This document shows positions 1,756 to 63,900 of a stretch of DNA of 64,000 bases, in pieces. The notes under the pieces are model-generated. The model was not told where the DNA came from. It saw nothing but the letters and a program-made list of their open reading frames with translations, and ran no database searches. Location: assembly GCA_964016885.1 (NCBI GenBank), contig OZ024743.1:317502001-317566000 (forward strand), in the 5' to 3' direction. The translations under genes were made by a program, and so were the position numbers. This DNA comes from Eledone cirrhosa. Lineage: Eukaryota. Each line of letters opens with the position of its first letter. The first letter of the stretch is position 1.

Positions 1756-1869
1756 TCAGCCTTTTGTCATGCCGGTAACCGGCTAGTACTTAGTACTACC
1801 CAACATATTTATAGCTATATCAAACATATATAAATATAAATATTCTTGTTACTATATATATATATATAG

Positions 1870-2078: not shown

Positions 2079-2098
2079 ATATATATATATATATATAA

Positions 2099-5000
2099 AT
2101 CAGGAAAGAAGAGTGACACGGTTTGCTATACAAAAAAGGTTTTTAATCTCATTACTGACAATTGTTTCTCTGAACTGGTAAGTCTAGAGATCGCTACCCG
2201 CTTATTTTCACGTTATTCGATCACCAATACAAAGTTATAACCAGTCAATTCATCGGAGCTTGTGAGAATGAAAAGAATATACAGGCATGGCTACTATATA
2301 TAGTAGTAATGGCATTCAATCAGAACAATACTAACAATGCTAGCAATAAATTATTTGAAATAATCACAACATCAATCTAGGTGGGAAGTATAGTATATCT
2401 ACGATTTTAGCGTGTAAAACTAGCTGACATGAGGCAGATGTATAAAATTGACATGTAAAAGCTGTCATGGGGTGTGTTATATCTAGTGTAAAGATAAGCC
2501 GGTGTCTTTAAACAATATAGGTTTGGCGGCCGTAAGAATCGTTTATTATCTGACAGATGAAGAATTTATCACTGTAGTGAGATTTGTGTGGTCTATAATA
2601 GATGAAAGAATTGTCTAGCTTTCTCATCATCAATAACATACATGTATAAGACAACATTAACAGAGTAGCAATATAATGGGCAAGTTAATACAGAGGTTAA
2701 GGAGGCAATATATATATATACACATACATGCACACAAACATATATATATATATATATATATATACATACACATATATACATACATATAAAGAGAAAACAT
2801 GCTGACTATAATTATAACAAGAGGAATGTAAAGTTCTGTTGTAGTAGTATTTTGAAATGTTCTCAGATTTAGGTTCAAGTGCTGACAGCAGCTGAGAAGA
2901 GATATGCTTATGGGTTGATGAGGTACTTACAGACATTAGTGTGGTATAGAACTAAGAAGGCTAGAATGTACTTAATGATTATATTTCTGTGGTGGTTCGT
3001 GCAGTGTAGTGGGTATCCTAAGTTGAAAGCTAGGTTATGTCGGTTCGATTCATGGAGGTTTAAATCTTGTGAATTTAGTGCCGATCCTGTATCTGCAGAA
3101 GATAGATCTTTCTAACTTGTTGTTAAGTAGTTTTTTTAACATTTCTAAGGATATACAGTAATTATAGATCACATAGCTTACAGTGGGACATACCGGTACT
3201 GTAGGTCTTTGCGGCCGACAACCTCGACCAGTTGATACTGTAGTTGGTGTTGTTGTCCTTAAGTTCCCAGATTTTTTTGGCGAGTGTTGTAGAACCCATA
3301 AGTGCGCAATTTTTCATCGAGTGTCTGTGCACATACCATCTTTTTTTAAAAGTACCCGCGGTGGATCCAATGTAATGCCAAGTGGAGTTGTCTGAGTTGA
3401 CCGTACACATGTACACTAGGCTCGAATCGAGGCATCTGTTCGCCAATGGGCACCTATCCGGTAGGTGACAGTTACAGTTTGAGGTGTTATTTCGTGTAGC
3501 TTCTACACTGCTGTTTTGTACACTGCTATAAGTGGGTTGTGATTCATGCCCGTTCGGGTTTTGCTGCTGCGTGCTTGTATGCGCTTGCGGTTGTGATACT
3601 GTGATGTGTTTATGCTTATAATTTGGTGCTATGTTGCGCATAGGTGGGGCGGATTCCCTAGAGATATTTCTGTGGTTGATCTTGCGTATGTGCGATTCTA
3701 TATTTGCTGACGTAGAGTATGAGAGTTTTATAGTGTTTCTATTGAGTATTTTATGATATCTGTGTGAAATAGGGAAGTGTTTATCTATTGAAGTGTTTAT
3801 CTAGAATGTAGAAGGCAACCTGGTTTTTACAGAGGAGTTGAAGATTGGGTTGAACCATAGATATTTTCTTTCTCTGATTCTTCTATTGCTTCTAGGGTTT
3901 ACATTATTAGCGTTTGGCCCGCTTACTCTAGGTGCTACGTACCTAACCCTATGTTACCTCTATTTTCGTGTGAGCGGTGGGTGTAATTGCTATTAGGTTG
4001 TTTAAGTTGTCTTTATTCGCTATATACTGCAGTTTATCTTTATGTCCAGCCCTATGTAATGCTGCGTTATAATAGTTAGCATGTTCATTAAAAATTTCTA
4101 AGGGATATACTACGTTCTATGGATCTGATTATGGATTTGGGGTGGTTTGAGTTATAACTAATGTAGGCCAGATTTTCATTATTTTTGTGGAAAGGTTCTA
4201 TTAATCCCGTATTTAGCTTTAGAGTCACATCTAGAAAGTTTACCTTCTTATGGTTCAGTTCGTAGGTAATACTTAGGCCTAGTTTTTTTAAGAATGTTCT
4301 AATGTTTTTTCTGGACATAAAGATAAACTGCAGTAAATAGCGAACAAAGACAACTTAAACAAACCTAATAGCAATTACACCAACCGCTCACACAAAAATA
4401 GAGGTAACAGGACTAGACATAGGGTTAGGCACGTAGCACCTAGTGTAATCGGTCCAAACACTAATAATGTAAACCCTAGAAACAATAGAAGAATCAGAGA
4501 AAGAAAATACCTATGGTTCAACCCAATCTTCAACTCCTCTGTAAAAACCATGCTGCCTTCTACATTCTTTAAACTAATAGATAAACACTTCCCTATTTCA
4601 CACAGATATCATAAAATACTCAATAGAAACACTATAAAACTCTCATACTCTACGGCAGCAAATATAGAATCGCACATACGCAAGATCAACCACAAAAATA
4701 TCTCTAGGGAATCTGCCCCACCTATGCGCAACATCGAGCCTAGTGTACATGTGTACGGTCAACTCAGACAACTCCACTTGGCATTACATTGGAACCACCG
4801 TGGGTACTTTTAAAAAAAGATGGTATATGCACAGACACTCGATGAAAAATTGTGCACTTATGGGTTCTACAACCCTCGCCAAAAAAATTAGGTAACTTAA
4901 GGACAACAACATCAACTACAGTATCAACTAGTCGAGGTTGTCGGCCGCAAAGACCTACAGTACCAGTATGTCCCACTGTAGGCTATGTGATCTATAATTA

Positions 5001-6056
5001 CTGTATATCCTTAGAAATGTAAAAAGGCTACTTAACAACAAGTTAGAAAGATCTATCTTCTGCAGACACAGGATCGCCACTAAATTCACAAGATTTAAGC
5101 CTCCGTGAATCGAACCGACGTAACCTAGCTTTCAACTTAGGATACCCACTACACTGCACGAACCACCACAGAAATATAATCATTAAGTACATTCTAGCCT
5201 TCTTAGTTCTATACCACACTAATGTCTGTAAGTACCTCATCAACCCATAAGCATATCTCTTCTCAGCTGCTGTCAGCAATTGAACCTAAATCCAAGAACA
5301 TTTCAAAATACTACTACAACAGAACTTTACATTCCTCCTGTTATTATTATAGTCAGCATGTTTTCTCTTTATATGTATGTATATATGTGTATGTATATAT
5401 ATATATATGTTTGTGTGCATGTATGTGTATATATATATATTGCCTCCTTAACCTCTGTATTAACTTGCCCATTATATTGCTACTCTGTTAATGTTGTCTT
5501 ATACATGTATGTTATTGATGATGAGAAAGCTAGACAATTCTTTCATCTATTATAGACCACACAAATCTCACTACAGTGATAAATTCTTCATCTGTCAGAT
5601 AATAAACGATTCTTACGGCCGCCAAACCTATATTGTTTAAAGACACCGGCTTATCTTTACACTAGATATAACACACCCCATGACAGCTTTTACATGTCAA
5701 TTTTATACATCTGCCTCATGTCAGCTAGTTTTACAAGCTAAAATCGTAGATATACTATACTTCCCACCTAGATTGATGTTGTGATTATTTCAAATAATTT
5801 ATTGCTAGCATTGTTAGTATTGTTGTTATTGTTCTGATTGAATGCCATTACTACTATATATAGTAGCCATGCCTGTATATTCTTTTCATTCTCACAAGCT
5901 CCGATGAATTGACTGGTTATAACTTTGTATTGGGGATCGAATAACGTGAAAATAAGCGGGTAGCGATCTCTAGACTTACCAGTTCAGAGAAACAATTGTC
6001 AGTAATGAGATTAAAAACCTTTTTTGTATAGCAAACCGTGTCACTCTTCTTTCTTG
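2099..6056. mobile_element. Divergent inverted dimer of a Naiad-like PLE 3' half (left arm minus ~2099-4316, right arm plus ~4317-6056)
   Basis: GIY-YIG ORF 3162-3641 (CNCHLPDRCPL..VYMCTV..HYIGST); arms share ~1 kb of 3' UTR in opposite orientation; same family as 15709-18840. Confidence 0.9.
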
Positions 6057-6229: not shown

Positions 6230-6270
<41 letters not shown>

Positions 6271-6273
<3 letters not shown>

Positions 6274-6928
6274 AATTAGTATATCTACCAACATATTTAT
6301 ACAGATGTATACTTACGCTAGCAAAGATATATGTTTTGTCCTAGTAACTTTGTGGTTCAATACAAAGAGATGTAGAACAATTATATAAAAGACGTAAAAT
6401 AAGAAAATTAACTTACTTACTTAAATTTCACTCCAACTAATTAGTTTCTGAAAGGGGTTATACATAGTCTTCAAATGGAGACCATGGAGAATCCTTTCTT
6501 CCTCAGGGAGTCATTCTCGGTTAAGATTCCTTGCAATACGCGGACACAGGGAACTTATACAAAAATAATTCAATGGATGGAAAAAAGCAAGCGCGGACTA
6601 AATTCCAAGACACTGAAAATTTTCCTGCCTTCCTGGTCAGTGGCAAATTCAAAAGAATCAATCACGTGACATCGAGGTTAATCAGTGAGGACTGGGGTGT
6701 TAAAAAGACAGTAGCTAACTAATACTATGAACCATAGTAGTAATTTAGGCAAATTTTTGCTCAACAAAATAATTTGGAGATAATTATAAAGAATTAGTAT
6801 ATCTACCAACATATTTATACAGATGTATACTTACGCTAGCAAAGATATAGGTTTTGTCTTAGTAACTTTGTGGTTCAATACAAAGAGATGTAGAACAATT
6901 ATATAAAAGACGTAAAATAAGAAAATTA
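6271..6928 (-). mobile_element. Retrozyme-like ~520-531 bp family, ~1.25 units
   Basis: AAGAATTAGTATATCTACC repeated at 6271 and 6789; homologous to 19561-20038 and 36175-37370; non-coding; carries a hammerhead. Confidence 0.75.
6430..6511 (-). ncRNA. Type I hammerhead ribozyme
   Basis: Minus strand: ACTCC-CTGAGGA-[stem II]-GAAAC-TAATTA-GTT-GGAGT. Confidence 0.7.
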
Positions 6929-6944
6929 TAGTAATTAATTAACT

Positions 6945-7800
6945 TAAACGGTCGGCACACATCTCCTCCTAAACCGTACGTTCAAATTTCGGTGAAATTG
7001 CTACACTTATAGATGAAGGTCCGGCGGAGACATCGGCCAAAACATTTTCAAATCGACCCACGCCAAGTGCAAAAATCGAATTAGTAATGTATTGATTTTT
7101 CAGTTCAAATGTATAAATAGAGACGAGAGACGAGTTATTTCCCTTTTATGACGTCATTCTGCTTATCTATTTACGTTACGAATAAACGACGCGTGCAAAA
7201 GTACACGAACAACTTTCGGGCCAGCAAAATTTTAACCTGCAAAATTCATGAGTTCGAAATTTCAGCATTAAGCTTCCATTTTGCTTCATTTCCATTAAAA
7301 AGTCTTTTAAAACAATATTTTTACTTGAAAACAAGCCTATTTGAATACACCGTAAAACAAGCAAATATTTTGTAAAAAAAAGCATTGAACTCGAATAAAG
7401 CCTTATGAGATTTTCATTTAGAAGCAATGATTTTAAACGAGACAGATAACGCATTTTTGTTTTGTTTTTCATGTCCATTCAATTTCTTTGTTTCCAAATA
7501 ACTGATAGTTTGGTTACGCTGATGTTTTTCTCCGAGACAAGTGTTGCAGTGTTTACATTTTCGATTTTTGTTAATAGATTACCAGTGCAGTTTTTATCCC
7601 CAGCATCCTCTTTTGTTTTAACATTCGAGTTATGGTTATGTTTTCTTAACTTCATAAGGCATACTCTTGGTTGAGGGAATATTAATCAAAAGTACCACAT
7701 GAAAGTCTACACTGTAGACTCTACAGTTTTTAAGCCAAGAAAGGAACTTAACATTGTAACTTTAACACAACCACCGAGCAATGCAGGGCTTTACTGCTAG
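6945..7800 (+). mobile_element. Non-autonomous Helitron-like element (5' end uncertain)
   Basis: 3' end CCGAGCAATGCAGGGC..CTAG|T resembles the Helitron-type end at 57403-57430. Confidence 0.45.
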
Positions 7801-11494: not shown

Positions 11495-12133
11495 TCAGAT
11501 GTAGCCATCATAGCCATCACAATGTTGTCCAACATGACCATTTAGGTCACCAGCAATAATTATGTAGTCACTGTCGGTTATTTGGGAGGTACTGAGCATT
11601 AGCGACTCATAGAATCTGTCTTTTGTAACGCCAGGTAGTCCAGATTGGGGTGCATAAGCAGATATTATTGTCACAGTAGTTCTATTTAGGACTAGTCTTA
11701 TTTTAATTATTCTGTCGTTCACTCTATTTACGTCAATTACCTTATCTACCCATTTTTCTGCTAACATAATTCCTACTCTACCCAGCCCATTTTCATTTCC
11801 CACCCAGAAAAGTTTATAGCATTGTTTTTTACCCACAATGAATCTAGCAGACCCACTCCACCACCTAGTCTCTTGAACACAACAAACATCAACTTCCTTA
11901 CGTTCAAGCATCTCTACAACCTCGTTAGAGCGACCTTTTAAAGTGCGTACATTCATGGTACCAACCCTGAAGTTTTGGATTTCGTTTGGTGGGTGGAAGG
12001 GATGGGTTGGAGGCGCAGGGAGGGGTGAGGGAGATGGGGTTATGTTAGCCATCCGTGTCTGAAATAAAGAGGAGTCCTTGCATTCTCGTCTGGCAACATG
12101 AGGTGAATTTATCTTTATCTTTGACATTGTCAT
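11495..12133 (-). mobile_element. RTE-clade LINE 5' fragment (APE endonuclease), joined to a short plus-strand RTE 3' fragment (~11395-11495)
   Basis: VGTMNVRTL, CCVQETRW, IISAYAPQSG, IIAGDLNGHVG motifs. Confidence 0.85.
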
Positions 12134-12367
12134 TGAGTGTCCAGATTCTTCAGACTCTCCAGAATTCTATAGTCCATCTAGCATATCAAAAAGCAACCAG
12201 GTTTAAACTTAAGGAGTGATAGCCGAGGCGGTGGTTTTTGTGAAAGAGATTGGTAAGGGAAACATTATAAGCCACTGAATTATGATTGGACCAAATAGTA
12301 ATGGTTACGTGTGGGGGCGGAAGTTAACGAGAAGATTATTTTTATAAAGGTCCTACATATACGTATA

Positions 12368-13050: not shown

Positions 13051-13560
13051 TTATAATTGCTGGGTTTTTACGCCTCGAATATATCTGGCTATTTTTAAAT
13101 TTGTTTCTCTCGCTATTTTTTTTTTTTTTTCCTCTCTCTATATTTTTTCTCTCTCTATATATCTCCCTTACATTAATACTTGAGCTAAATAAATAAATAA
13201 ATAAATAAATGTATCATTGATACATTTATTCAAAATGACCTCCCACTACCTAATTTTCTATATATATATATGTATCTATCTCTATTTCCTCTCTCTCTAT
13301 ATATATATATCTCTTTCTGTTTCTTTACATGAAGTTCTTCGCTTTATCTATCTTTCCATCTCTCTATTTTGTTCCATGCATTTCCTCTTTCTCTTCTTTT
13401 TCTTCCTTTTCTTCGTTTTCTGTCTTTCTTTCTTTTTTCTTTTTTCTCTCTTTCTTTCTCTCTGTGTAAAATTTTTTCACTGCCAGCTTAAACCTCTTCA
13501 AATGAAGTCGGTGTTATAACGGTATGTCGAATCTATTTATCTATAAAACTGTTTATATTG

Positions 13561-13626
13561 TATTTTGTCTGATGAAGGCATAGCATATTGTTAATATGAT
13601 ATCCCCGAAATATATATAATGAAATA
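13561..13626 (+). ncRNA. Type I hammerhead ribozyme in a pLTR-like fragment (~13500-13760)
   Basis: TATTTTGT-CTGATGA-[stem II]-GAAA-TATATA-TA-ATGAAATA; 8-bp stem I; homologous to 32530-32594. Confidence 0.75.
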
Positions 13627-32963: not shown

Positions 32964-35900
32964 TATAGACATAGAATATTCGAAAATATTCTGTATGTTT
33001 ATAATAAACATTTTGAAGACCTAATCGCTATAGAATAGAATACGTCACGTATTACAATTAGATTCTCGATAAAAGCAAGGGAAGTAATCTACGCGTTTCA
33101 TTCTTGTTAGAAATCATCAGGACTACATATCCAGTGCTTTTATCGAGAATGACACAGCTAGAGACTTATAGAATACTTAGCTGTGTACAGGAACTGGTTT
33201 GAAAGAGCGGTTGCCGGTCCGGCAGAAATTAGAAATTGGAATAAATGCTCTGAAATAGCGATATATATGTGAATATAGACATAGAATATTCGAAAATATT
33301 CTGTATGTTTATAATAAACATTTTGAAGACCTAATCGCTATAGAATAGAATACGTCACGTATTACAATTAGATTCTCGATAAAAGCAAGGGAAGTAATCT
33401 ACGCGTTTCATTCTTGTTAGAAATCATCAGGACTACATATCCAGTGCTTTTATCGAGAATGACACAGCTAGAGACTTATAGAATACTTAGCTGTGTACAG
33501 GAACTGGTTTGAAAGAGCGGTTGCCGGTCCGGCAGAAATTAGAAATTGGAATAAATGCTCTGAAATAGCGATATATATGTGAATATAGACATAGAATATT
33601 CGAAAATATTCTGTATGTTTATAATAAACATTTTGAAGACCTAATCGCTATAGAATAGAATACGTCACGTATTACAATTAGATTCTCGATAAAAGCAAGG
33701 GAAGTAATCTACGCGTTTCATTCTTGTTAGAAATCATCAGGACTACATATCCAGTGCTTTTATCGAGAATGACACAGCTAGAGACTTATAGAATACTTAG
33801 CTGTGTACAGGAACTGGTTTGAAAGAGCGGTTGCCGGTCCGGCAGAAATTAGAAATTGGAATAAATGCTCTGAAATAGCGATATATATGTGAATATAGAC
33901 ATAGAATATTCGAAAATATTCTGTATGTTTATAATAAACATTTTGAAGACCTAATCGCTATAGAATAGAATACGTCACGTATTACAATTAGATTCTCGAT
34001 AAAAGCAAGGGAAGTAATCTACGCGTTTCATTCTTGTTAGAAATCATCAGGACTACATATCCAGTGCTTTTATCGAGAATGACACAGCTAGAGACTTATA
34101 GAATACTTAGCTGTGTACAGGAGCTGGTTTGAAAGAGCGGTTGCCGGTCCGGCAGAAATTAGAAATTGGAATAAATGCTCTGAAATAGCGATATATATGT
34201 GAATATAGACATAGAATATTCGAAAATATTCTGTATGTTTATAATAAACATTTTGAAGACCTAATCGCTCTTTCAAACCGCTCTTTCAAACCAGTTCCTG
34301 TACACAGCTAAGTATTCTATAAGTCTCTAGCTGTGTCATTCTCGATAAAAGCACTGGATATGTAGTCCTGATGATTTCTAACAAGAATGAAACGCGTAGA
34401 TTACTTCCCTTGCTTTTATCGAGAATCTAATTGTAATACGTGACGTATTCTATTCTATAGCGATTAGGTCTTCAAAATGTTTATTATAAACATACAGAAT
34501 ATTTTCGAATATTCTATGTCTATATTCACATATATATCGCTATTTCAGAGCATTTATTCCAATTTCTAATTTCTGCCGGACCGGCAACCGCTCTTTCAAA
34601 CCAGTTCCTGTACACAGCTAAGTATTCTATAAGTCTCTAGCTGTGTCATTCTCGATAAAAGCACTGGATATGTAGTCCTGATGATTTCTAACAAGAATGA
34701 AACGCGTAGATTACTTCCCTTGCTTTTATCGAGAATCTAATTGTAATACGTGACGTATTCTATTCTATAGCGATTAGGTCTTCAAAATGTTTATTATAAA
34801 CATACAGAATATTTTCGAATATTCTATGTCTATATTCACATATATATCGCTATTTCAGAGCATTTATTCCAATTTCTAATTTCTGCCGGACCGGCAACCG
34901 CTCTTTCAAACCAGTTCCTGTACACAGCTAAGTATTCTATAAGTCTCTAGCTGTGTCATTCTCGATAAAAGCACTGGATATGTAGTCCTGATGATTTCTA
35001 ACAAGAATGAAACGCGTAGATTACTTCCCTTGCTTTTATCGAGAATCTAATTGTAATACGTGACGTATTCTATTCTATAGCGATTAGGTCTTCAAAATGT
35101 TTATTATAAACATACAGAATATTTTCGAATATTCTATGTCTATATTCACATATATATCGCTATTTCAGAGCATTTATTCCAATTTCTAATTTCTGCCGGA
35201 CCGGCAACCGCTCTTTCAAACCAGTTCCTGTACACAGCTAAGTATTCTATAAGTCTCTAGCTGTGTCATTCTCGATAAAAGCACTGGATATGTAGTCCTG
35301 ATGATTTCTAACAAGAATGAAACGCGTAGATTACTTCCCTTGCTTTTATCGAGAATCTAATTGTAATACGTGACGTATTCTATTCTATAGCGATTAGGTC
35401 TTCAAAATGTTTATTATAAACATACAGAATATTTTCGAATATTCTATGTCTATATTCACATATATATCGCTATTTCAGAGCATTTATTCCAATTTCTAAT
35501 TTCTGCCGGACCGGCAACCGCTCTTTCAAACCAGTTCCTGTACACAGCTAAGTATTCTATAAGTCTCTAGCTGTGTCATTCTCGATAAAAGCACTGGATA
35601 TGTAGTCCTGATGATTTCTAACAAGAATGAAACGCGTAGATTACTTCCCTTGCTTTTATCGAGAATCTAATTGTAATACGTGACGTATTCTATTCTATAG
35701 CGATTAGGTCTTCAAAATGTTTATTATAAACATACAGAATATTTTCGAATATTCTATGTCTATATTCACATATATATCGCTATTTCAGAGCATTTATTCC
35801 AATTTCTAATTTCTGCCGGACCGGCAACCGCTCTTTCAAACCAGTTCCTGTACACAGCTAAGTATTCTATAAGTCTCTAGCTGTGTCATTCTCGATAAAA

Positions 35901-36107
35901 GCACTGGATATGTAGTCCTGATGATTTCTAACAAGAATGAAACGCGTAGATTACTTCCCTTGCTTTTATCGAGAATCTAATTGTAATACGTGACGTATTC
36001 TATTCTATAGCGATTAGGTCTTCAAAATGTTTATTATAAACATACAGAATATTTTCGAATATTCTATGTCTATATTCACATATATATCGCTATTTCAGAG
36101 CATTTAT

Positions 36108-36112
<5 letters not shown>
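32961..36112. repeat. Divergent double array of a 310-bp retrozyme-like unit: ~4.2 units (ribozyme on minus, 32961-34269) + ~5.9 units (plus, ~34277-36112)
   Basis: Period 310 (32961, 33271, 33581, 33891, 34201; 34281, 34591 ... 35831); units essentially identical. Confidence 0.95.
34362..34404 (+). ncRNA. Minimal type I hammerhead, one per 310-bp unit (10 copies in total)
   Basis: GTAGTC-CTGATGA-T-TTCT-AACA-AGAA-T-GAAAC-GC-GTA-GATTAC; stem I extended by 16-bp helix ATTCTCGATAAAAGCA/TGCTTTTATCGAGAAT. Confidence 0.9.
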
Positions 36113-36174
<62 letters not shown>

Positions 36175-36179
<5 letters not shown>

Positions 36180-37365
36180 GACGTAAATAAGAAAGTTATG
36201 AAAATTGACTTACTAAAATTTCACTCCAACTAATTAGTTTCTGTAAGGGGATAAATACAGTTACGTAATACCTGTAGAGAAGCCTTACGTCATCAGGGAG
36301 TCTATTCTCAGCTAAGCCACCAGGCAATGCGGGGACACTGGAAGCTTATATAACAATAATTCAGTGGATGGTAAAAAGCGAAAAAATCGAGCGAGGATGG
36401 ATTCTAAGCACTGAAAAATTCGCTGCCTCCTTGGTCAAGTTTTGAATTTCCCACTTGACCAAGGAGGCAGCGAATTTTTCAGAGCTTAGAATCCAGCCCC
36501 GCTCGATTTTTTCGCTTTTTTCCATCCACTGAATTATTTGTTATATAAGCTTCCAGTGTCCCCGCATTGCCTGGTGGCTTAGCTGAGAATAGACTACCTG
36601 ATGACGTAAGGCTTCTCTACAGGTATTACGTAACTGTATTTATCCCCTTACAGAAACTAATTAGTTGGAGTGAAATTTTAGTAAGTAAGTCAATTTTCAT
36701 AACTTTCTTATTTACGTCTTTCATATAATTGTTCTGCATCCCCCTGCATAGAACTACAAAGTTACTAAGACAAAACATATATATCTGCTAGCGTAGGTAT
36801 GCATCTGTATACATATGTCGGTAGATATATTAATTCTTTATATCCTTCTCCAAATTATTTGTTGAGCAAAATTTGCCAAATTACTACTGTGACTGATAGT
36901 AGTAGCTAGGCTCTGTCTTGATAGCACCCCCACTCCAAGCTGGTTAACCTCAGTGTCACGTGATTAATTCTTTTGAATTTGCCACTTGACCAAGGAGGCA
37001 GCGAATTTTTCAGTGCTTAGAATCCAGCCCCGCTCGATTTTTTCGCTTTTTTCCATCCACTGAATTATTGTCATATAAGCTTCCAGTGTCCCCGCATTGC
37101 CTGGTGGCTTAGCTGAGAATAGACTCCCTGATGACGTAAGGCTTCTCTACAGGTATTACGTAACTGTATTTATCCCCTTACAGAAACTAATTCGTTGGAG
37201 TGAAATTTTAGTAAGTAAGTCAATTTTCATAACTTTCTTAGTTATGTCTTTCATATAATTGTTCTGCATCCCCCTGCATAGAACTACAAAGTTACTAAGA
37301 CGAAACATATATATCTGCTAGCGTAGGTATGCATCTGTATACATATGTCGGTAGATATATTAATT

Positions 37366-37370
<5 letters not shown>
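36175..37370. mobile_element. Retrozyme-like 531-bp family: inverted arm (36175-36438) + ~1.75 tandem units; hammerheads at 36223-36301 (minus), 36593-36671 and 37123-37201 (plus)
   Basis: CCACTTGACC at 36451 and 36982; ACTCC-CTGATGA..GAAAC-TAATT(A/C)-GTT-GGAGT. Confidence 0.85.
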
Positions 37371-37399
<29 letters not shown>

Positions 37400-37403
<4 letters not shown>

Positions 37404-37516
37404 TGAAACAAAATGAAAACGAAATTTCATTTCTCACTCTTAGTATGGCACTTACTTAAATGTAAGTATGCATGTATACGTACATACATATATGTATACT
37501 AACGTACAGTAGCATG

Positions 37517-37555
<39 letters not shown>

Positions 37556-39200
37556 GCATACAGGTACACATACATATATGCACGTATCAGTTTAGCGGCG
37601 CTTATTATAACGTCGCTTTGTTCGTTTGTAAACAAACTGAACAGCCTGAATTTATGCCATACGGTGTTAAGGCAACCACGTCACCTTTTTGTTCAACACT
37701 GACACAGGAACGATGTACTAGTTTCAAGCTTGTTAGCTATCATCAGCACCGTTTACCCATCTGCCAGATAGTTGAACGTTCGAAAGTATATACTTTCCTT
37801 ATGAAAATTAACGGCTGAGCAGCCTAATTTGCATATTGAGTGAGTTAAATCGGTCAGGCATACCGAAAACGATAAATTGAAACAAAATGAAAACGAAATT
37901 TCATTTCTCACTCTTAGTATGGCACTTACTTAAATGTAAGTATGCATGTATACGTACATACATATATGTATACAGACGTACAGTAGCATGCACATATATA
38001 TATATATATATATACATATATATATACATATGCATACAGGTACACATACATATATGCACGTATCAGTTTAGCGGCGCTTATTATAACGTCGCTTTGTTCG
38101 TTTGTAAACAAACTGAACAGCCTGAATTTATGCCATACGGTGTTAAGGCAACCACGTCACCTTTTTGTTCAACACTGACACAGGAACGATGTACTAGTTT
38201 CAAGCTTGTTAGCTATCATCAGCACCGTTTACCCATCTGCCAGATAGTTGAACGTTCGAAAGTATATACTTTCCTTATGAAAATTAACGGCTGAGCAGCC
38301 TAATTTGCATATTGAGTGAGTTAAATCGGTCAGGCATACCGAAAACGATAAATTGAAACAAAATGAAAACGAAATTTCATTTCTCACTCTTAGTATGGCA
38401 CTTACTTAAATGTAAGTATGCATGTATACGTACATACATATATGTATACAGACGTACAGTAGCATGCACATATATATATATATATACATATATATATACA
38501 TATGCATACAGGTACACATACATATATGCACGTATCAGTTTAGCGGCGCTTATTATAACGTCGCTTTGTTCGTTTGTAAACAAACTGAACAGCCTGAATT
38601 TATGCCATACGGTGTTAAGGCAACCACGTTACCTTTTTGTTCAACACTGACACAGGAACGATGTACTAGTTTCAAGCTTGTTAGCTATCATCAGCATATA
38701 TGTATGTGTACCTGTATGCATATGTATATATATATGTATATATATATATGTGCATGCTACTGTACGTCTGTATACGTATACATATATGTACGTATACATG
38801 CATACTTACATTTAAGTAAGTGCCATACTAAGAGTGAGAAATGAAATTTCGTTTTCATTTTGTTTCAATTTATCGTTTTCGGTATGCCTGACCGATTTAA
38901 CTCACTCAATATGCAAATTAGGCTGCTCAGCCGTTAATTTTCATAAGGAAAGTATATACTTTCGAACGTTCAACTATCTGGCAGATGGGTAAACGGTGCT
39001 GATGATAGCTAACAAGCTTGAAACTAGTACATCGTTCCTGTGTCAGTGTTGAACAAAAAGGTGACGTGGTTGCCTTAACACCGTATGGCATAAATTCAGG
39101 CTGTTCAGTTTGTTTACAAACGAACAAAGCGACGTTATAATAAGCGCCGCTAAACTGATACGTGCATATATGTATGTGTACCTGTATGCATATGTATATA

Positions 39201-39258
<58 letters not shown>

Positions 39259-39308
39259 CATGCTACTGTACGTCTGTATACATATATGTATGTACGTATA
39301 CATGCATA

Positions 39309-39311
<3 letters not shown>
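37400..39311. repeat. Divergent double array of a ~476-bp retrozyme-like unit (~2.7 units minus + ~1.3 units plus, switch near 38695)
   Basis: AATTGAAACAAAATG at 37401, 37875, 38351; inverted from ~38696. Confidence 0.92.
38992..39036 (+). ncRNA. Minimal type I hammerhead of the 476-bp unit (also 37709-37753 and next unit, minus)
   Basis: AACGGTG-CTGATGA-T-AGCT-AACA-AGCT-T-GAAAC-TA-GTA-CATCGTT. Confidence 0.9.
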
Positions 39312-39388
<77 letters not shown>

Positions 39389-39701: not shown

Positions 39702-40503
39702 GTGCATGCAATAGTGATTAGTATTAAAACTACCCTAAAGGGCCACATATTCAAATTCAACGAAATGATCTACACCCAAAATGAGGGAGCAGCCATTGGT
39801 GTCAGCATAGCTGGTGACGTTGCCAACCTTTCTATGGTATGGTGGGAAAGGAGACTCAAAGATCTCCTTGATGGGAGCTCCATAGACCTCATCATGTACT
39901 CTCGTTAGGTAGATGATATTAATATAGTAATAAGGACACCCCAACAAGAGAGTAGTAACAAATATGATTTAGAATGTAGCACAATGGAAAGCATCCAGCA
40001 GATAGCTAACTCCATACACCAGAGTATAACTGTAAGTATCGACTACCCTTCCAAACATCCTAACAGTAGACTACCTGTATTAGACATGGAACTCTGGATT
40101 AACATTATAGACGAGAGGGCCCAAATTCTCCACTCACACTACGCTAAACCCATGTCCTCCAAATACCTGATACTCAAAAACTCAGCAATGTCCAGTAGTG
40201 CTAAGTTTAATATTCTGATCGCAGACTTAGTACGAGTGATGAAGAACGTGTCCCACATGTGCGACCCAACAGAAATGGAAAGACACATCCGACACTTCAT
40301 CAACCGCATGCAGTTCTCTGGCTACAACCAAAGAGACAGAATCAGAGTATACAAAGGAGCCACGGAGAAGTATAAGACCCTCATAGAACTGGACATGAAA
40401 GGAATTTGCCCATTATACAGGAGCAAATCATGGAATAGCTTAGATAGGACTAAACATAAGATAGGGAAAGCCACCTCATGGTACGACAACCAGAGATACC
40501 AGT
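39702..40503 (+). mobile_element. PLE RT fragment related to 29736-31473
   Basis: GAAIGVSIAGDVANL..MYSR*VDD..IANSIHQSI..LPVLD. Confidence 0.85.
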
Positions 40504-43500
40504 GTGTCTGTGTGTGCGGAGGTGTGGTGGAAAGGGGAGAGGATGGGTAGGTGTGAAAGGTGGAGGGAGAAGGTGGTGGTGTGGGGAGATGGTGTGTATA
40601 TTAGTGGAGGTGTTAGTGGGATGTGTGTGTGAGGGGGTGTAGGTGGAGCGGGGAGAGAGAGAGGGAGAGAAAGCGTGTTGGGGACGGCGGAGGGAGTGTA
40701 GTGTGCGTGTTTGGATATGAGTGTGTGTGTGTGGTAGAGAGGGTGTTAGTATTAATGATGGTGGGGAGGGGGTTGAATGCGGGTGTGTAAGTGGGGGTTA
40801 GTGGTGGTTCGGTGTGTGGAGTGGGTAGTGTATCGGTGTGTACGTAGGTGTGGGTGGGTGTATGTGATGGTGTGTGTTCGTGTATGTAGGTGAGGGGGAA
40901 GGTAGGTTGGGGGATGTTAGCAATATTAGTTGTGGGGGTGGTCAGATGTGGATGTGTGGGTTGGGGTTAATGGTAGTTATAGGGTGTGTGGATAGTGTGA
41001 GTGCATGTATATATGTACAGGTGGGTGTGGGGAGTGTGGGTCCGCGGGTGCTAGGGGTAGGGGTGGGGATGTTAGTATTATTACTTGTAGGGTGGGTCAT
41101 CCAGGTGGGGGCGGTGAAACTGAGGAGTGTGTTAGTGGGGAATGTGTGTGGGGGGGGGGGGTCGGTCGGTCGAAGGCTAAAGGAATAGGGGTGGGGAGTT
41201 CAGGCCGGGGTATGTGTGGGTCTGTAGGGTGAAGATGGTGTGATGTTCGACCTTGAGGCGGGTGGCGGGTGTCCCATGGCATTGGGTCAGGCTACCGACT
41301 GTGAGGTGGTGGGCGGAATGTCCAGGGGAGCCAAAGTGGCGGGCGATGGGGAACTCCCGTCGAGACGAATATCGCGGAAATGCTCCGTGCTCCTATCCGC
41401 CAGGCGACGTCCAGTCTGTCCGTAGACGAGTTTGGAGGAGGTGCAGCGGAAGGCGTCCCTGACAGAGAGAGAGTGGCCATTGGGACCTTGGAAGGTGGTG
41501 TGTTGGTGATGTGGGAGCAAGGAAGGGAACCGGGGGGGGGAGAAGAGCTGGGTTGGAGGGTAGGGAGCTGCGGACGAGGATGGAGTGGAGATTACGCGCG
41601 CGTTTGAAAGAGGGGGAGGTAAGATGGGGGACGTGGAGGAGTCGGACTGGAGGCGTCGGAAAAGGCGGAGGATGGTGCGGTGGTGGGGTAGGATGGTGGG
41701 GTGGTAGGTGATGGGGAAGGGGATAGGGTGGGTGGGTGTGCAGGGGCGTGGGGTGAGGGTGGTGGAGCGATGGATCGCACGGATGCGAGTGATGGCGGTG
41801 TGGACGAGGGAGGTGGGGTAACCTCTCTGGATGAAATGGCTGACTAGGGAAAGGGCCTGGGATTCGAAGTCAGCTTCTCGGCTGCAGAGGCGGCGGATCC
41901 GGAGGAGTTGGGAGTAGGGAATAGAGTGTTTTGTGTGTGTAGGGTGGGAGGAGGTGAAGTCGAAGTAGGAGTGGGAGTCGGTGGGTTTGAAGAAGGCGGA
42001 GGTGACGAGGGAGCGGTGGGAGGGGTCGATGGCGACGGAGATGTCAAAGAAGTGGACGTGGGTGGTGGAGATAGAGGTGGTGAAATGGAGGGAGGGGTGG
42101 AAGGAGCAGAAGAAGGAGAGAAAGGAGTCAAGATGTTCTCGGGTGAGGGTCGTGGCCCCGATACAGTCGTCGATGTAACGACCATACTGTTCGGGTGTGG
42201 GGCCGGTGTACTGGGAAAAGATTTGGGCCTCAACATGACCAACGAAAAGGTTGGCATAGTTTGGGCCCATTCTTGTGCCTATAGCTACTCCAGCGACCTG
42301 TTGGTAAAACTCACCTGAGAAGGAGAAGCAGTTGAGGGTGAGGACCAGCTCGGCGAGGCGAAGGAGGGTGGGGGTGGAGGGGATGGGGGAGGGACGAAGG
42401 TCGAAGTAGTGCCGGAGGGCACGTAGGCCATCGGCGTGGGGGATAACTGTGTAGAGGGACATAATATCTAGGGTGAAGAGGAGGGGGTGTGGGCCGGGTG
42501 GGAAAGTGAGGGAGTCGAACAGGCGAAGGGCGTGATTGGTGTCGTAGATGTGGGAGGGGAGGGTGGTGACGAGGAGAGCGAGGATGGAGTCAAGAAAGGC
42601 GGAGATAAGTTCAGTGGGGCAGTTGCAACCGGAGACGATGGGGCGGCCTGGGTTGTCTGGTTTGTGGAGTTTGGGGAGGATGTAGATCGTGGAGGTGCGA
42701 GGGGTGCGGACGATGAGGTGGGAAGCGGTGGGAGAGAGGAGGGAGGAGGATACGAGGTGTTGGATAGTGGAGGAAACTTGTTGTTGGTAGAGGGGTATGG
42801 GGTCGGAGGGTAGAGGGCGGTAGAAGAGGGGGTTACGGAGCTGCCTGGGGGCTTCACCGTGTAGAGGTCAGCGTGCCATACCACCACGGCGTCTCCTTTG
42901 TTCGCCGGTTTGATGACGATGTCATCTCAGCTACGGAGGGAGCTGAGTGCGAGGAGTTTGCCCCGTGTGATGTTATGCCGTTTGGAACGGCGGCGGAAGT
43001 CGAAGCGATTTACTGCGCTACGGCAGGCGTCGACGAACGTGTCCAGGGTGCTAAATTGCCCGGATGCCAGCATCCAAGATGATGGTCGTCGGCCCAGAGC
43101 GAGAAAGGGGTCTGGGGCGTTCGGAGCCGGTGGGGTTTGGTGAAAATGTGCCTGTAGCTTGGTGCGTCGCACGAATCGCTCGACATCCGTTCGGGTGCGT
43201 CACTCGTCGTTGCGCGGGGTGTGGGGTATGAAGCGCAGGCCTCTACTGAGGAGTGAGCGCTCGGGTGCGGAGACGGGGAGGACAGGGGGTATGGTGACGA
43301 CAAATGAGGGTGAGGTGGGTGCGGTTTGAGTGGGGTGGGGCGTGGGGGTGATGGGGGGTATGGAGGGGTGTGATAGGGGGAGGGGAGTGTGTGGTGGAGG
43401 GTGGTGGGGATGGGTGTGATGGGTGAGGTGCATGTGGGGGGTCTCGGGAGTGGGGGATAGTGGTGGGGGAAGGTATGGTGGGGTGGAGTATGTGTGGCTT

Positions 43501-48004: not shown

Positions 48005-50842
48005 CCAAAGAGGGCTCGATAAGGATAAATATATATCAAATATATAAGAACCGTAGAGCAAATATTTATTAAAATAACATATTAAGGTTTAAGCAAAGAA
48101 TCGCTGCTTTCACCCTTAACGGGATCTTCTGAAACTAACAAAGTCAATCTGTAAACGCAGAAGTGGATATTTCAAAAAACGTTGCAGCCGGAGGAAGACA
48201 GGAAGACGATACTTTGGTTCGTGGACACGTTCGCTGGCAAAGAACGGGAAAAAACGAATAAGATACGTCATTAATAGGAGCGGTGAAAAACAATTACGCG
48301 CAAAGACAGAACCACGTTTATGGTATAAAAGAGGTCGTAGACTAAAGTTCTCTTAGGTGGTTCATAGAGACGTTCTCTGGCAATGAACGAAAAAAACGAA
48401 GATAATACGTCATATGTGGACCATAGAGAACAATAGCACGCAAAGACAAAACCACGTAAATGGTATAGCAGAAGTCGTAGACTAAAATTCTAACTAGGAC
48501 ACCGAATGAATCTCCGCTACAGAGTTAAGAACAAAGTAAATAAATACAATACAGAAGTAATAGAAATAAATAAATACATACACGCAAACAAATACGTACA
48601 TACACAAGCATACGCAAAAACACTTACCATAGGTATACAAAACCACGCACATATAAATATGTGTGTGTGTGTGTGTATGCGTGTATACAAATAAATAAAT
48701 AAATAATTATATAAACGTATATAAATAAATAAATACGTAAATAACAAGCGCACACACATACCTACATGTAAATACACGAATGTTCGGAGACGTAAGTCAA
48801 CCAAAACATGAAGTACACATATACACACACCCTACATACGTACGAACCTGCATACTCACACAGACACAAAACTCCCGTATACACATAGCCAAACCATATG
48901 TACCAGAATAAAAAAAATAAAAAAAGTTTATACGCCATAACATAAACAATCAAATATACGTACGAGAAGGTATACGTACCTTCACGAAACATACGGGTAA
49001 TATATACTTACCTATGCAAATAAGTAATGGTATAAACAAAACATATACTTAGCTCCCACATCAAGACGTAACATATCCACGTATAGATCGTACTATCCAT
49101 TAGGGTATAACGTGGGGCTGTAATACAGGAAAGTTTTGTGCAATTTATGTTTACAAGCCGAAATTGCCTCAGATTTTTTGTTTAAGATGTGGTCTGTGGC
49201 GTATAGTATTTCCAGGGCCTCAGCGGCGCAGAGGTCACAAGGTCTTTTATTTCCGTTATACGATCTAGCCCTAGCTAGGATCTCCCAGTGTAACTTATAT
49301 TGGGTGTGGTTGTCTTTTAGACTCCATATATAAGCTGAAAGTAACGTCATATTCCTTCTTAGAGGGTAACGAAAAGAATGGGTATGCGTGTAAAGACGCT
49401 GCTTGAATCTATTGGCGGTTAACCCTATGTAGGCCCTACGGGACGTGGGTGTTACAACCTTACATTTGTAGACAATGTTACTAGAGAGGCAATTCCCGGA
49501 TAGGGGCATTCAGCCCGATTCCTACAATTACAGTTAGTACTAACTACAGGGTTGCACGTGTTCCTACGGCTAGGTAGTTTAGCTAAATTTGAAGCTGTGA
49601 TGTTATGTGCAAGGTTAGGAGTCGTAGAGTAAGAAATTTTAATAGTATTTCAATTAAAAATTTTACTATATTTATGTGTAGGGGGAAAATGCTTCGTAAT
49701 AAGGGAAAGAAAGATCTTAGCTAATGGTGTGGCCACCTCCATATTATATGGTGGGTTATACCAACAAATGCGACGGGATCTATTTCTTCTAGGTCTATTT
49801 TCGTACTCTGTATATGCTACCTTATCGACAAATCCACTTCGAGCAAGAGCTTCATTGTAATAAGTGGAGTGGTCGTTGAAAATACGCTCGTTGGTGGAAA
49901 GAGGGGAAAGCCTCAACGAAACGTTTCTTACCAGGTTCTTGGTTATGCTGGCAGGATGGTTGGAATGCTTACTTATGTAATTAAGCGTATCATTCGGCTT
50001 TCTATACGAGTAATACAACCCATTCAATAAATTGAGGGTAACGTCAAGGTAATTAACGACCGAGAGATTGGCCTCAACCTGTATAGAGAGGTTGAAGCCT
50101 TTAAAGAAGGCTGTGAGTTCTTTTCTGAACCTGTCGAAAGCACGAGGTCCGCACTTAGTCATGGTCAAAAGACCATCGTCACGGTACAAACCACCGCCCG
50201 CGTTGGGGAATTCGTTCTTGATAGAGAAAAGAAGGAAAAGGTCGATAAGATTAGTAACCTCCGCAGAATCACTAGCGCCCATGCTCACGTCGAATGGGGT
50301 GCTATGAGATTTTTTAATCCAAATAGAGTCGTCGAAATTAATCACCGACTTTCGGGCATTGAGGATGACATCAACTTCGAAATCCTTAACCACTGTGAGT
50401 GTTTTAGCGAAATTGATAGCTCTAAGGAGAATTGGTAAAGTGATGGAGGAGTAGTAATTGTTGATGTCGAATTGGATAAAACGGCAATGTTCCTTGTTAC
50501 ATATGCCGTTGAACCAATCAATCACCGCGAAAGAATTGTTCCACAGTGCAAGAGGGGCCAATCTTCTGATTTCAGGTATAATTCTATCAAGAATCGTTTT
50601 ACTAAGTCTACCTAAATCGGACTTCGTAAGGTTAATAAGCCGAATAGAGGGGTTGTTCGGAAAATTGGAGCGATTCTTTGCTTAAACTTTAATCTGTTAT
50701 TTTAATAAATATTTGCTCTACGGTTCTTATATATTTGATATATATTTATCCTTATCGAGCCCTCTTTGGATTTTAGTCTTGAAATTTATTATTATTAATA
50801 TTTAGCTCCCTCGGTTGAGCACTCTACTGACTTATATTCATC

Positions 50843-52972
50843 ATGCAGAAACAACATCTGAATATTTCTACAAAGAACATACCCGTACCAAGCAGGAAAT
50901 CATACCTAAAACTCCTGATACAGAAAACAGACGCGTTCATTAAAAGGTTGCGTTGGCGTGCCTTTTATTTCGATAACCCGCAAAAAGCAGACAACAAACA
51001 GGATAAATGTGGATTTAAAACCTATAATAACCCCCCGTGTAACCCAGCATTGCTACCCTTCGAAAATGATGTCTTGGAACTCAGTCGGAGTATCAAATTT
51101 CTGAATAGGAGCAATTCCTTCCAGCAAGACCTGAAGAATAGAATTCGTTCTATTAAGGATTCTAATGCCGTGCACGTCCATTCCGACAAAACTGGCAACC
51201 TATATCAAGTGGAACGCAGTACTTACCATCAACTACTACATAATGCTGTAACTAAGGATTACCGTAAAACTAATCGGTGCGTCATCAATGAAATCAACGA
51301 TGCTGGGTTTAAAATCACATCTGATCTCAACATCCTGGACCGGACCGAACCTCTGGACCCTATTTCTCCCCACTTTACCCTGAAGGATCACAAATCCAAT
51401 TTTCCGAACAACCCCCCTATTCGGCTTATTAACCCTACGAAGTCCGATTTAGGTAGACTTAGTAAAACGATTCTTGATAGAATTATACCTGAAATTAGAA
51501 GTTTGGCCCCTCTTGCACTGTGGAACAATTCTTTCGCGGTGATTGATTGGTTCAACGGCATATGTAACAAGGAACATTGCCGTTTTATCCAATTCGACAT
51601 CAACAATTACTACTCCTCCATCACTTTACCAATTCTCCTTAGAGCTATCAATTTCGCTAAAACACTCACAGTGGTTAAGGATTTTGAAGTTGATGTCATC
51701 CTCAATGCCCGAAAGTCGGTGATTAATTTCGACGACTCTATTTGGATTAAAAAATCCCATAGCACCCCATTCGACGTGAGCATGGGCGCTAGTGATTCTG
51801 CGGAGGTTACTAATCTTATCGGCCTTTTCCTTCTTTTCTCTATCAAGGACGAATTCCCCAACGCGGGCGGTGGTTTGTACCGTGACGATGGTCTTTTGAC
51901 CATGACTAAGTGCGGACCTCGTGCTTGCGACAGGTTCAGAAAAGAACTCACAGCCTTCTTTAAAGGCTTCAACCTCTCTATACAGGTTGAGGCCAATCTC
52001 TCGGTCGTTAATTACCTTGACGTTACCCTCAATTTATTGAATGGGTTGTATTACCCGTATAGAAAGCCGAATGATACGCTTAATTACATAAGTAAGCATT
52101 CCAACCATCCTGCCAGCATAACCAAGAACCTGGTAAGAAATGTTTCGTTGGGGCTTTCCCCTCTTTCCACCAACGAGCGTATTTTCAACGACCATTCCAC
52201 TTATTACAATGAAGCTCTTGCTCGAAGTGGATTTGTCGATAAGGTAGCATATACAGAGTACGAAAATAGACCTAGAAGAAATAGATCCCGTCGCATTTGT
52301 TGGTATAACCCACCATATAATATGGAGGTGGCCACACCATTAGCTAAGATCTTTCTTTCCCTTATTACGAAGCATTTTCCCCTTACACATAAATATAGTA
52401 AAATTTTTAATTGAAATACTATTAAAATTTCTTACTCTACGACTCCTAACCTTGCACATAACATCACAGCTTCAAATTTAGCTAAATTACCTAACCGTAG
52501 GAACACGTGCAACCCTGTAGTTAGTACTAACTGTAATTGTAGGAATCGGGTTGATTGCCCTCTATCCGGGAATTGCCTCTCTAGTAACATTGTCTACAAA
52601 TGTAAGGTTGTAACACCCACGTCCCGTAGGGCCTACATAGGGTTAACCGCCAATAGATTCAAGCAGCGTCTTTACACGCATACCCATTCTTTTCGTTACC
52701 CTCTAAGAAGGAATATGACGTCACTTTCAGCTTATATCTGGAATCTAAAAGACAACCACACCCAATATAAGTTACACTGGGAGATCCTAGCTAGGGCTAG
52801 ATCGTATAACGGAAATAAAAGACCTTGTGACCTCTGCGCCGCTGAGGCCCTGGAAATACTATACGCCACAGACCACATCTTAAACAAAAAATCTGAGGCA
52901 ATTTCGGCTTGTAAACATAAATTGCACAAAACTTTCCTGTATTACAGCCCCACGTTATACCCTAATGGATAG
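50843..52972 (+). CDS. PLE RT-GIY-YIG polyprotein, 709 codons with a single in-frame TGA at 52412-52414
   Basis: SDKTGN, IRLINP, FIQFDI, FDVSMG, GLYRDD; frame continues NTIKISYS..CNCRNRVDCPL..VYKCKV..AYIGLT to the stop at 52972. Confidence 0.85.
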
Positions 52973-61791: not shown

Positions 61792-61954
61792 CATATATAT
61801 ATACATATATATATACATATAAATAAAGTTATATATATATATATATATAACTTTATTGCCGCCAAGACATCAGGGGCGCCAAACGTTATGTCCGATAAGG
61901 TGTAATGGGGAGTAACATCGCCGATACAGCCCAGATCGGCCATATATATATATG

Positions 61955-62006
<52 letters not shown>

Positions 62007-62035
62007 CATATATATATACATATATATATATATAT

Positions 62036-63900
62036 AAAACACAAAATCACTGGCTCTACTGTTGGCCCTCTAATTGATGAAAATGGCACTCTTCAAGACA
62101 ATGCTAAAACCATGGGTGAGATACTGCAGAAACAATACTGCTCTGTTTTCAGCAATCCTGATATGGCCGATCTGGGCTGTATCGGCGATGTTACTCCCCA
62201 TTACACCTTATCGGACATAACGTTTGGCGCCCCTGATGTCTTGGCGGCAATAAAGGAAATCAAGCATAATTCAGCAGTAGGTCCCGATAGGTTCCCTGCT
62301 TGTGTCTTGAAGGCGTGTCAACACCAACTTGCATCTCCTCTTGCCAATCTGTGGCGGAACTCACTGGATGCTGGATATGTGCCAGAAAACCTTCTATCCC
62401 AGTCTGTTGTCCCAGTTTTCAAAAAGGGAAACAAATCCCTTGCCGTGAATTACCGTCCAATCTCACTCACCTCTCATATCATTAAGGTATTTGAGAGAGT
62501 GGTGAGATCGCGAATGACCCACTTCCTTGAGAGTAACAATATGCTGAACTCCAACCAGCATGGATTCCGTAATGGAAGGGATTGCCTGACGCAGCTACTG
62601 CATCACTTTGATGACATTTTGAGAGCCTTGGGAGAGGGTTCCAACACTGATGTTATCTACCTTGATTTCAGCAAGGCCTTTGACAGGGTTGATCATAACA
62701 TTCTACTGAGAAAGCTGTCCAATATTGGTGTCACTGGAAAGCTGCTGCAGTGGATCAAGAGCTTCCTGTCAAACAGAACCCAACATGTTGTAGTTGAGGG
62801 AGTCAAATCAAGCCCAGCCAAAGTCAGTAGTGGGGTCCCACAAGGCACTGTGTTGGGCCCACTTCTCTTCATCATCTATATTAATGACATCACTGACATC
62901 ATCAAACACAGCATCATTAAAATTTTCGCTGATGATTCCAAGCTCCAAAAGGTCATCAATGGCGTGGATGACCGGCTAAGCCTTCAGTCAGACCTACTGG
63001 CTGTTACCCAATGGGCAGAAAAGAACAACATGTTACTGAACGAAGACAAATTCGAACTGATCCACTTTGGAAAAGAGGATGCTCTGAAACTCCCGTACTC
63101 CCTTCCCTCCGGGGAAACTCTCGTGGCATCTAACAACATCAGAGACTTGGGAGTAACCGTGGACAGCAACATAAGCTGGACCACGCATATAAGCAGCAAA
63201 GTTGACATGGCCCGCAGAATGTGTTCCTGGATCCTCAGAACCTTCCAGTCGAGAGATTCCCGCACCATTATCCTTCTCTTCTCTACTTTTGCCCGACCAC
63301 ACCTTGAATACTGTTGTCCACTGTGGTCTCCCCACACGAAACAAAGTATCATGAAACTTGAAGCTCCTCAAAGGGCAATCACGAAAAAGATAGATGGCAT
63401 GTCAGACCTTGACTACTGGGGTCGATTAGAAAACCTGAAACTTTACTCACTCCAACGTCGCCGTGAGCGTTATATTATCTGCATGATGTGGAAAATGTTC
63501 CATCATCACTGCCCAAATGATGTTGGCATCGCCTTCAAGATACACCCAAGGCTTGGGCCCCGTGCTATCCGTCCCATTCAAAAATCTAAATCGCAACTCA
63601 TAACAACAATACGGCACAATTATTTCACCTCAATCGGCCCTGCTCTCTTCAACATCACACCAGGACACGTCAAAACAGAAACTGACCACACAAAATTCAA
63701 GAAGTCTTTGGACAAATTCCTCCAAGTAATCCCGGACAAACCACCCACACCCGGATATGTCTCCGCAAACAGTAATTCTCTTCTCGAATGGGCCATGGTG
63801 CCCAAATCCTGAATTGAAAGACTTCGCCAGGTGGTGCTATTAAGTTAGACATGGCCTGGGCCAATACTGGCCAAAACATTTCAAAGTTATTCAAAGTTAT
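62036..63900 (+). mobile_element. 5'-truncated CR1-group LINE with open RT frame to 63812; inverted 93-bp piece at 61851-61943
   Basis: YRPISLTS, QHGFR, YLDFSKAFD, SGVPQGTVLGP, FADDSK; (TTCAAAGTTA)2 tail then (TA)n. Confidence 0.92.

Follow-up and report, generated by a model that had tools for sequence, protein, structure and literature searches.

Within a 64,000-nucleotide stretch of the Eledone cirrhosa genome (GenBank assembly GCA_964016885.1, contig OZ024743.1, positions 317,502,001 to 317,566,000 of the forward strand; the whole stretch is called the window here), two families of tandem repeats with units of 310 and 476 bp each carry a predicted hammerhead ribozyme, and the two ribozymes have in common a U.U pair at the base of stem II (positions 10.1/11.1), the bases AACA in loop II and a GUA cut site. 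Are these features the marks of a distinct hammerhead subtype, as a preliminary description of the locus had proposed, or are they variants of a motif already known? We consider it very probable that U.U and AACA are tolerated variants of the standard type I motif rather than subtype marks, and that they occur in two separate non-coding families, likely non-long-terminal-repeat (non-LTR) retrozymes. The host is an animal with a 3.0-Gb genome, and the surroundings within the window form a cluster of Penelope-like retroelement fragments and TA microsatellites.

Two Repeat Families and Their Predicted Hammerheads

Both motif strings quoted in the preliminary description occur letter for letter in the window. 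A loose hammerhead pattern returned 16 matches there against 0.66 expected, and 14 of these are copies of the two families, ten in the 310-bp array (32951-36113) and four in the 476-bp array (37398-39318). The principal features are as follows.

32951..34269, minus strand: 310-bp retrozyme (likely), left (inverted) arm of 4.3 units, whose short 3′ end lies at unit position 130-139 and continues into (TA)n
33080..34062, minus strand: four predicted 310-family hammerheads; core starts 33120, 33430, 33740, 34050
34276..36113, plus strand: 310-bp retrozyme (likely), right arm of 5.9 identical units, whose long 3′ end lies at unit position 165 and continues into (TA)n; core starts 34368, 34678, 34988, 35298, 35608, 35918
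34356..34408, plus strand: predicted type I hammerhead, 310 family, first plus-strand copy; recurs each 310 bp up to 35958
37398..38696, minus strand: 476-bp retrozyme (likely), left arm of 2.7 units, whose long 3′ end lies at unit position 320 and continues into (TA)n
37706..38234, minus strand: two complete predicted 476-family hammerheads, core starts 37746 and 38222; a third (38694) is without the 5′ strand of stem I
38697..39318, plus strand: 476-bp retrozyme (likely), right arm of about 1.3 units, whose short 3′ end lies near unit position 254-261 and continues into (TA)n
38987..39039, plus strand: predicted type I hammerhead, 476 family, core start 38999; predicted cut after 39029

The families are otherwise dissimilar, as had been claimed. 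Outside the 37 ribozyme bases the units are unrelated, the best local score between them being 28 (mean of shuffles 20.4, with 5 out of 200 scoring as high), and that match is a TA repeat.

The two ribozymes are predicted to adopt the canonical animal type I fold, with the core CUGANGA...GAAA...NUH and helix I open. Their common layout runs from a 3-bp stem Ib, a UAH/U internal loop and a 6-bp stem Ia through CUGAUGA, a four-position stem II, a UAACAA hexaloop and GAAA to a six-base palindrome and position 17. The 310-family hammerhead at 34356..34408 fills this layout with stem Ib GGA/UCC, internal loop UAU/U, stem Ia GUAGUC/GAUUAC, U10.1.U11.1, the UAACAA loop and stem III ACGCGU, with a predicted cut between 34398 and 34399; the 476-family hammerhead at 38987..39039 has GGG/CCU, UAA/U, ACGGUG/CAUCGU, U.U, the UAACAA loop and ACUAGU. 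When the two are aligned, nine helix pairs differ, eight by double changes and one by a change from G-C to G.U, and none is broken. Covariation had been read into all three stems; in stem III (GC versus UA) the bases concerned pair only in a dimeric fold. AACA is indeed present in both families, as the middle of the UAACAA hexaloop rather than as the loop itself.

These helix lengths (6 bp in helix I, four positions in helix II, a short palindrome as helix III) match the canonical metazoan architecture set out in PMC4209133, where a weak palindromic helix III is held to favor dimers; both families depart from the canonical motif at 10.1/11.1, having U.U in place of a purine-pyrimidine pair. 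For the most part, the features that the families have in common are general type I consensus, and the two ribozymes very probably look alike because canonical animal type I hammerheads are all held to the same fold. A minimal Penelope hammerhead with one additional base ahead of 10.1 was considered as an alternative and ruled out by inspection, since the shift fails to restore a full stem II.

Rfam gave no match in the window at the gathering threshold, and weak microRNA matches there are TA-repeat artefacts. For both motifs the best Rfam match is Hammerhead_HH9 (RF02275), an amniote intronic type I ribozyme, at 19.2 (310) and 18.5 (476) bits. The likeness lies in the 6-bp stem Ia, the UA-bearing internal loop, the 4-bp stem II, the YAANNA hexaloop (CAAAAA in the HH9 consensus) and an equal core; HH9 differs in having G10.1-C11.1 and a real stem III hairpin, where the window families have U.U and a palindromic stem III.

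Covariation and Variant Spectrum

From the 166 different 53-mers of the sampled loci we chose 13 representatives by hand, which stand for about five lineages, and their alignment carries a clear signal of structural covariation. In this alignment 93.3% of cells are paired, and double changes are seen at 13 of the 16 pairs. Covariation scores 0.709, where shuffled alignments give 0.264 ± 0.034 and slid ones a maximum of 0.145; the shuffle takes no account of relatedness, and the procedure is not R-scape. The proposal that structure is under selection gains support here, the signal standing well above both controls. The exception is pair 10.1/11.1, which is G-C in three representatives, A-U in two, C-G in one and mismatched in seven (U.U four times, A.A twice, C.A once); the other three pairs of stem II show no mismatch in any of the 13. 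None of the 13 differs at loop positions 1-3 and 6, at U1.7 or at the A of the internal loop. The invariant loop bases agree with the HH9 consensus, and we judge from sequence only that stem I may contact loop II.

Genome-wide motif scans with controls place these representatives in context. The pattern of the preliminary description has 15,963 matches in the genome and none in the reversed control, but 15,305 of them (96%) are the two exact window motifs (10,718 of the 476 motif and 4,587 of the 310 motif), and a covariance model built on that pattern would therefore contain essentially two sequences. On the same scaffold with a YAANNA loop, again with no control matches, U.U accounts for 38,876 copies, a purine-pyrimidine pair for 13,759 and any non-U base at 10.1 for 15,701. 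The 310 family itself exists in two alleles, U.U in 14,189 copies with N7 free and A-U in 3,944 copies with N7 fixed as U; the A-U sister is 99.7% identical over 308 bp and forms arrays at many loci. Among relatives of the 476 unit the pair is G-C (local identity about 67%), C-G or C.A (74-93%) or A.A (65-72%). The center of the loop is AACA in five of the 13 representatives, G-C and A-U forms among them, AAUA in six and AAUG in two, and elsewhere entire arrays have AACG; position 17 is A in five, U in six and C in two, giving GUA, GUU and GUC cut sites. Between pair strength and cut-site triplet we found no consistent trade-off (G-C occurs with GUU and with GUC, and A.A with GUU). In some A-U alleles (L104 and L106) one base has been inserted into the 3′ strand of stem I, at unit position 2, giving a 311-bp unit; other A-U arrays (L105) are without it.

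More than 54,000 matches have A at loop position 6; only 563 (8 in the control) have another base there, and most of these are single copies. G8 mutants of the 310 family number 23, against the 14,189 U.U copies, and have founded no arrays. A survey of array-wide fixed changes in that family (16 loci with a full unit out of 19 examined) found 25 distinct changes, none at an invariant core base; among them are changes at N7, at 10.1 and at positions 4 and 5 of the loop, two in stem I that preserve pairing and, just after the cut site, one substitution and one one-base insertion. The rarity of G8 mutants and the distribution of these changes back selection on the ribozyme in a supporting, not decisive, way, since few founder lineages could partly mimic both by chance. 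On the ribozyme strand of 310-family loci L091-L107 the array-wide substitutions include seven A>G and one T>C; the numbers are small, and the excess could reflect A-to-I editing of an RNA template.

Outside this genome, viral contigs gave no motif matches. Metagenome contigs gave 19 loci, among which only an unrelated record (L200) has a fully paired U.U/GUA hammerhead; the remainder are mostly members of a single repeat family whose stems are imperfect. Members of that metagenome repeat family (within L192-L209) have U.U hammerhead-like motifs with a CAAGUA loop, some in divergent inverted pairs (L194, L196 and L197).

Insertion Anatomy

For the 310 family we sampled 17 stretches, comprising all ten clusters among the first 100 exact-motif matches (one in two pieces) together with variant clusters; for the 476 family, 20 stretches were taken by a selection that favored two-orientation clusters. 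Exact words were used to map 3′ ends in the 310 family, and the ends of the 476 family, whose internal TA tract is variable, were mapped otherwise. All of the 33 resolved 310-family ends lie away from the cut site, at unit position 117-139 or 156-167; strictly alternating TA follows 22 of them. One short and one long 3′ end are present in each of the 15 two-armed 310 insertions, and in 12 of the 16 two-armed 476 insertions (short near 261, long near 320), the other four being unresolved. The repeat ends run straight into (TA)n. Units are often identical across both arms of one insertion, yet distinct from those at other loci, and across all fetched loci adjacent hammerheads on opposite strands are divergent in 49 cases and convergent in three, with a junction of variable position. 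In the window, the long-end tail of the 310-bp right arm is about 26-35 nt, and the 5′ end of the 476-bp left arm joins the right arm directly upstream of a CUGAUGA core.

Craig et al. (2021, PMC8557442) describe endonuclease-bearing Penelope elements as marked by partial tandems, an inverted 5′-truncated copy, a tail on one side and a preference for TA targets, and an internal start of reverse transcription accounts for the Penelope tail (Frangieh et al. 2024, PMC11167929). The insertions sampled here have the inverted 5′-truncated copy beside a tandem, the tail at one end only and the (TA)n target, and we think it likely that Penelope-type retrotransposons copy the 310 and 476 repeats. A retroelement fragment, of mixed types, lies near 35 of 162 loci, and among the matches listed none links a unit to the Penelope ends in the window. 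Candidate autonomous partners, suggested by matches 2-4 kb apart, proved to be higher-order periods of long arrays and not full elements. One 476 array (L161, positions 1-5950) has alternating units, 96% identical to the neighbor and 99.8% to the next but one, and its inverted arm is closer to one of the two phases, which would fit a dimeric template; another array (L158) has a seven-unit period. We found no description of two-armed retrozyme insertions in the literature searched, whose coverage was incomplete and limited to main texts (the word 'inverted' is absent from the main text of PMC7229834).

Other Features of the Window

Two further features bear on the setting.

36171..37373, no strand assigned: third non-coding two-armed repeat, period about 531 bp, between the 310 and 476 arrays
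50831..52972, plus strand: Penelope-like open reading frame, interrupted by a stop, with RWR, DKT and CxCX5C motifs like those of the TA-targeting Hydra clade (as defined in PMC8557442)

Read by eye, the third repeat has a putative hammerhead with a long stem II, in which pair 10.1/11.1 is C.A, stem III is a palindrome and the cut site is GUU, at 36218-36306 (minus), 37118-37206 (plus) and with a core at 36598 (plus); minimum-energy folding yields stem I only. Related copies of this repeat lie at 6236-6946 and 19555-20041. The open reading frame, which has no Pfam or PDB match, would be only a candidate for the type of helper that might serve the retrozymes. Fragments of Penelope-like open reading frames, of at least four kinds and several of them inverted pairs, occur at 747-4813, 16690-18468, 24246-26493, 29728-31018, 39775-40507, 41287-42867 and 49093-52972, and minimal Penelope-type hammerhead motifs with a CUGAAGA core lie at 31224 and 47772, 3′ of Penelope reading frames. 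A small inverted element at 32289-32733 (related copy at 13537-13840), possibly decayed, has two hammerhead-like cores (32386 minus, 32538 plus), in which stem II is long and stem I weak. Two fragments resembling long interspersed elements are found at 11495-12166 and 61899-63812.

Discussion

The 310 and 476 units are tandem, non-coding and AT-rich (GC 34% and 35%, below 50%), and each has one predicted type I hammerhead. The predicted circle of the 310 unit folds at −67.8 kcal/mol, against −47.3 ± 4.7 for 30 mononucleotide shuffles; the corresponding values for the 476 unit are −157.5 and −96.6 ± 7.2, inflated by an internal TA hairpin. The repeats are likely non-LTR retrozymes and, to go by their sequences, two new families of a known kind of element with an ordinary animal type I hammerhead. 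Four contig runs of uncertain kind gave presence only, three of them in the form of a single 340-base contig; it fits tandem DNA or a circle, and we do not use it as evidence.

Several observations weigh against this reading. U.U makes up about 71% of scaffold copies, above the obvious expectation of pure tolerance, although few founder lineages can explain that figure. The HH9 scores fall far under the 52-bit cut-off, so the families are not HH9 members; the minimum-energy folds of both 75-mers are without an open core, and that of the 476 75-mer is not significant (z −1.3). On the side of copying, the 476 tail (about 59 nt) exceeds the 30-40 nt stated for Penelope elements, our searches yielded no autonomous Penelope element with the 310 or 476 units, and hammerhead cleavage is unneeded for insertion in a Penelope in vitro system (PMC11167929). 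Eight of nine predicted retrozyme dimers, moreover, failed to cut in vitro (bioRxiv 10.64898/2026.07.22.740005).

Two other accounts of the U.U pair have to be set beside tolerance. That U.U, AACA and GUA define a distinct subtype with a tertiary contact of its own seems to us highly improbable: all three features do recur in both window families and in 15,963 genomic copies, U.U is the commonest state of its pair, and the hammerhead of the unrelated L200 combines U.U with GUA, but in expanded sister subfamilies each feature varies independently. AACA occurs in five and U.U in four of the 13 representatives, position 17 is variable, the A-U, G-C, AAUA and AACG sister arrays contradict a fixed combination, the loop fits the HH9 consensus, the exact window motif accounts for only 4,587 of the 14,189 U.U copies of the 310 family, and U.U is already in print (PMC7229834, PMC3088659). 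A doubtful idea is that weak 10.1/11.1 pairs (U.U, C.A, A.A) are positively favored, a slower ribozyme keeping circles or multimers intact for copying, and that U.U arose separately in each family. The concentration of all stem II mismatches at this pair (seven of 13 representatives against none at the other three pairs), the 71% share of U.U, the unrelatedness of units whose lineages each also contain Watson-Crick forms, and a report that the ribozyme must be restrained in circles (PMC7229834) are consistent with it; yet the A-U and G-C forms likewise grew to thousands of copies in long arrays, no trade-off with the cut-site triplet is consistent, and none of the roughly five lineages sampled can be rooted, leaving direction and independence unsupported. 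We would entertain only tentatively the speculation that retrozyme lineages in this genome repeatedly tune the ribozyme down at 10.1/11.1, on top of a stem III that forms only in dimers, as slower cutting favors copying from circles. If so, the U.U and A-U forms of the 310 family are a natural pair of alleles, both spreading, in which the effect could be measured, and the fixed short and long ends mark two start sites of Penelope reverse transcription on the RNA.

It is also very unlikely that the arrays are ordinary satellites, grown by local unequal crossing-over from Penelope terminal repeats with the hammerhead as a passenger. Such a route has been proposed (bioRxiv 10.64898/2026.07.22.740005), and the higher-order periods of some long arrays (L158, L161) are in keeping with it, but fixed variants are common to the two arms of an insertion, whose ends at many loci fall within (TA)n at two precise positions of the unit, and core mutants founded no arrays, whereas neighboring non-core variants do. 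Copying by Penelope-type enzymes remains the reading we prefer, and beyond the observed motif, covariation, variant spectrum, copy numbers and insertion anatomy we infer a mechanism of the following kind. Arrays would be transcribed as multimers, in which two adjacent hammerheads would pair through the palindromic stem III and cut at GUA, U.U probably slowing the reaction without abolishing it; the unit-length RNA would then be circularized. A Penelope-type reverse transcriptase/GIY-YIG endonuclease might nick (TA)n and start at fixed internal sites on the RNA, and several rounds of the template would leave an array of two arms joined head to head, one with a short and the other with a long 3′ end. 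We favor a circular template because the copies read through the cut site, though an uncut linear multimer could have served in its place.

The value of these families, as we see it, is as a test system and not as a ribozyme subtype, the fold and the U.U variant being known already. More than 54,000 copies and recently expanded, near-identical alleles (differing at 10.1/11.1, N7 and the loop) show which positions of a hammerhead a spreading retroelement can change, and the regular two-armed insertions are genomic evidence for the copying of animal retrozymes by Penelope-like enzymes that has been proposed.

Comparison with Known Systems

The retrozyme class (PMC7229834; reviewed in PMC7761336) and its link to Penelope elements (bioRxiv 10.64898/2026.07.22.740005) have been published. 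Animal non-LTR retrozymes as described by Cervera and de la Pena (2020, PMC7229834) resemble the window families in being non-coding tandems of a few hundred bases with GC below 50% and one type I hammerhead per unit, in their tens of thousands of copies, in a strongly self-paired predicted circle and in coexisting with Penelope elements that have minimal hammerheads. The 476-bp unit is slightly over the 150-450 range given there, and those retrozymes were shown to be expressed. With endonuclease-bearing Penelope elements, the Hydra clade included, the window repeats share partial tandems, the inverted 5′-truncated copy, a tail at one end, (TA)n or AT-rich targets and an internal start (PMC8557442, PMC11167929); unlike them, they encode no protein and carry a hammerhead of the full tertiary-contact kind, not the minimal Penelope type.

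The closest precedents for the ribozymes themselves come from the axolotl. In HHR_Amex2, with about 60,000 copies, helix II begins at its base with a U.U mismatch; the monomer cleaves 22% in 1 h, the dimer much more (PMC7229834). HHR_Amex1 has, as in the window families, a 1-bp helix III with a palindromic tetraloop (PMC7229834). Here both weak features are found in one ribozyme, whereas Amex2 has a more stable 2-bp helix III. Natural stems II that begin U-U (U10.1-U11.1) have been recorded as a rare variant, and U.U as the most active mispair in cleavage (Perreault et al. 2011, PMC3088659); what is rare in that survey is the majority state in this one genome.

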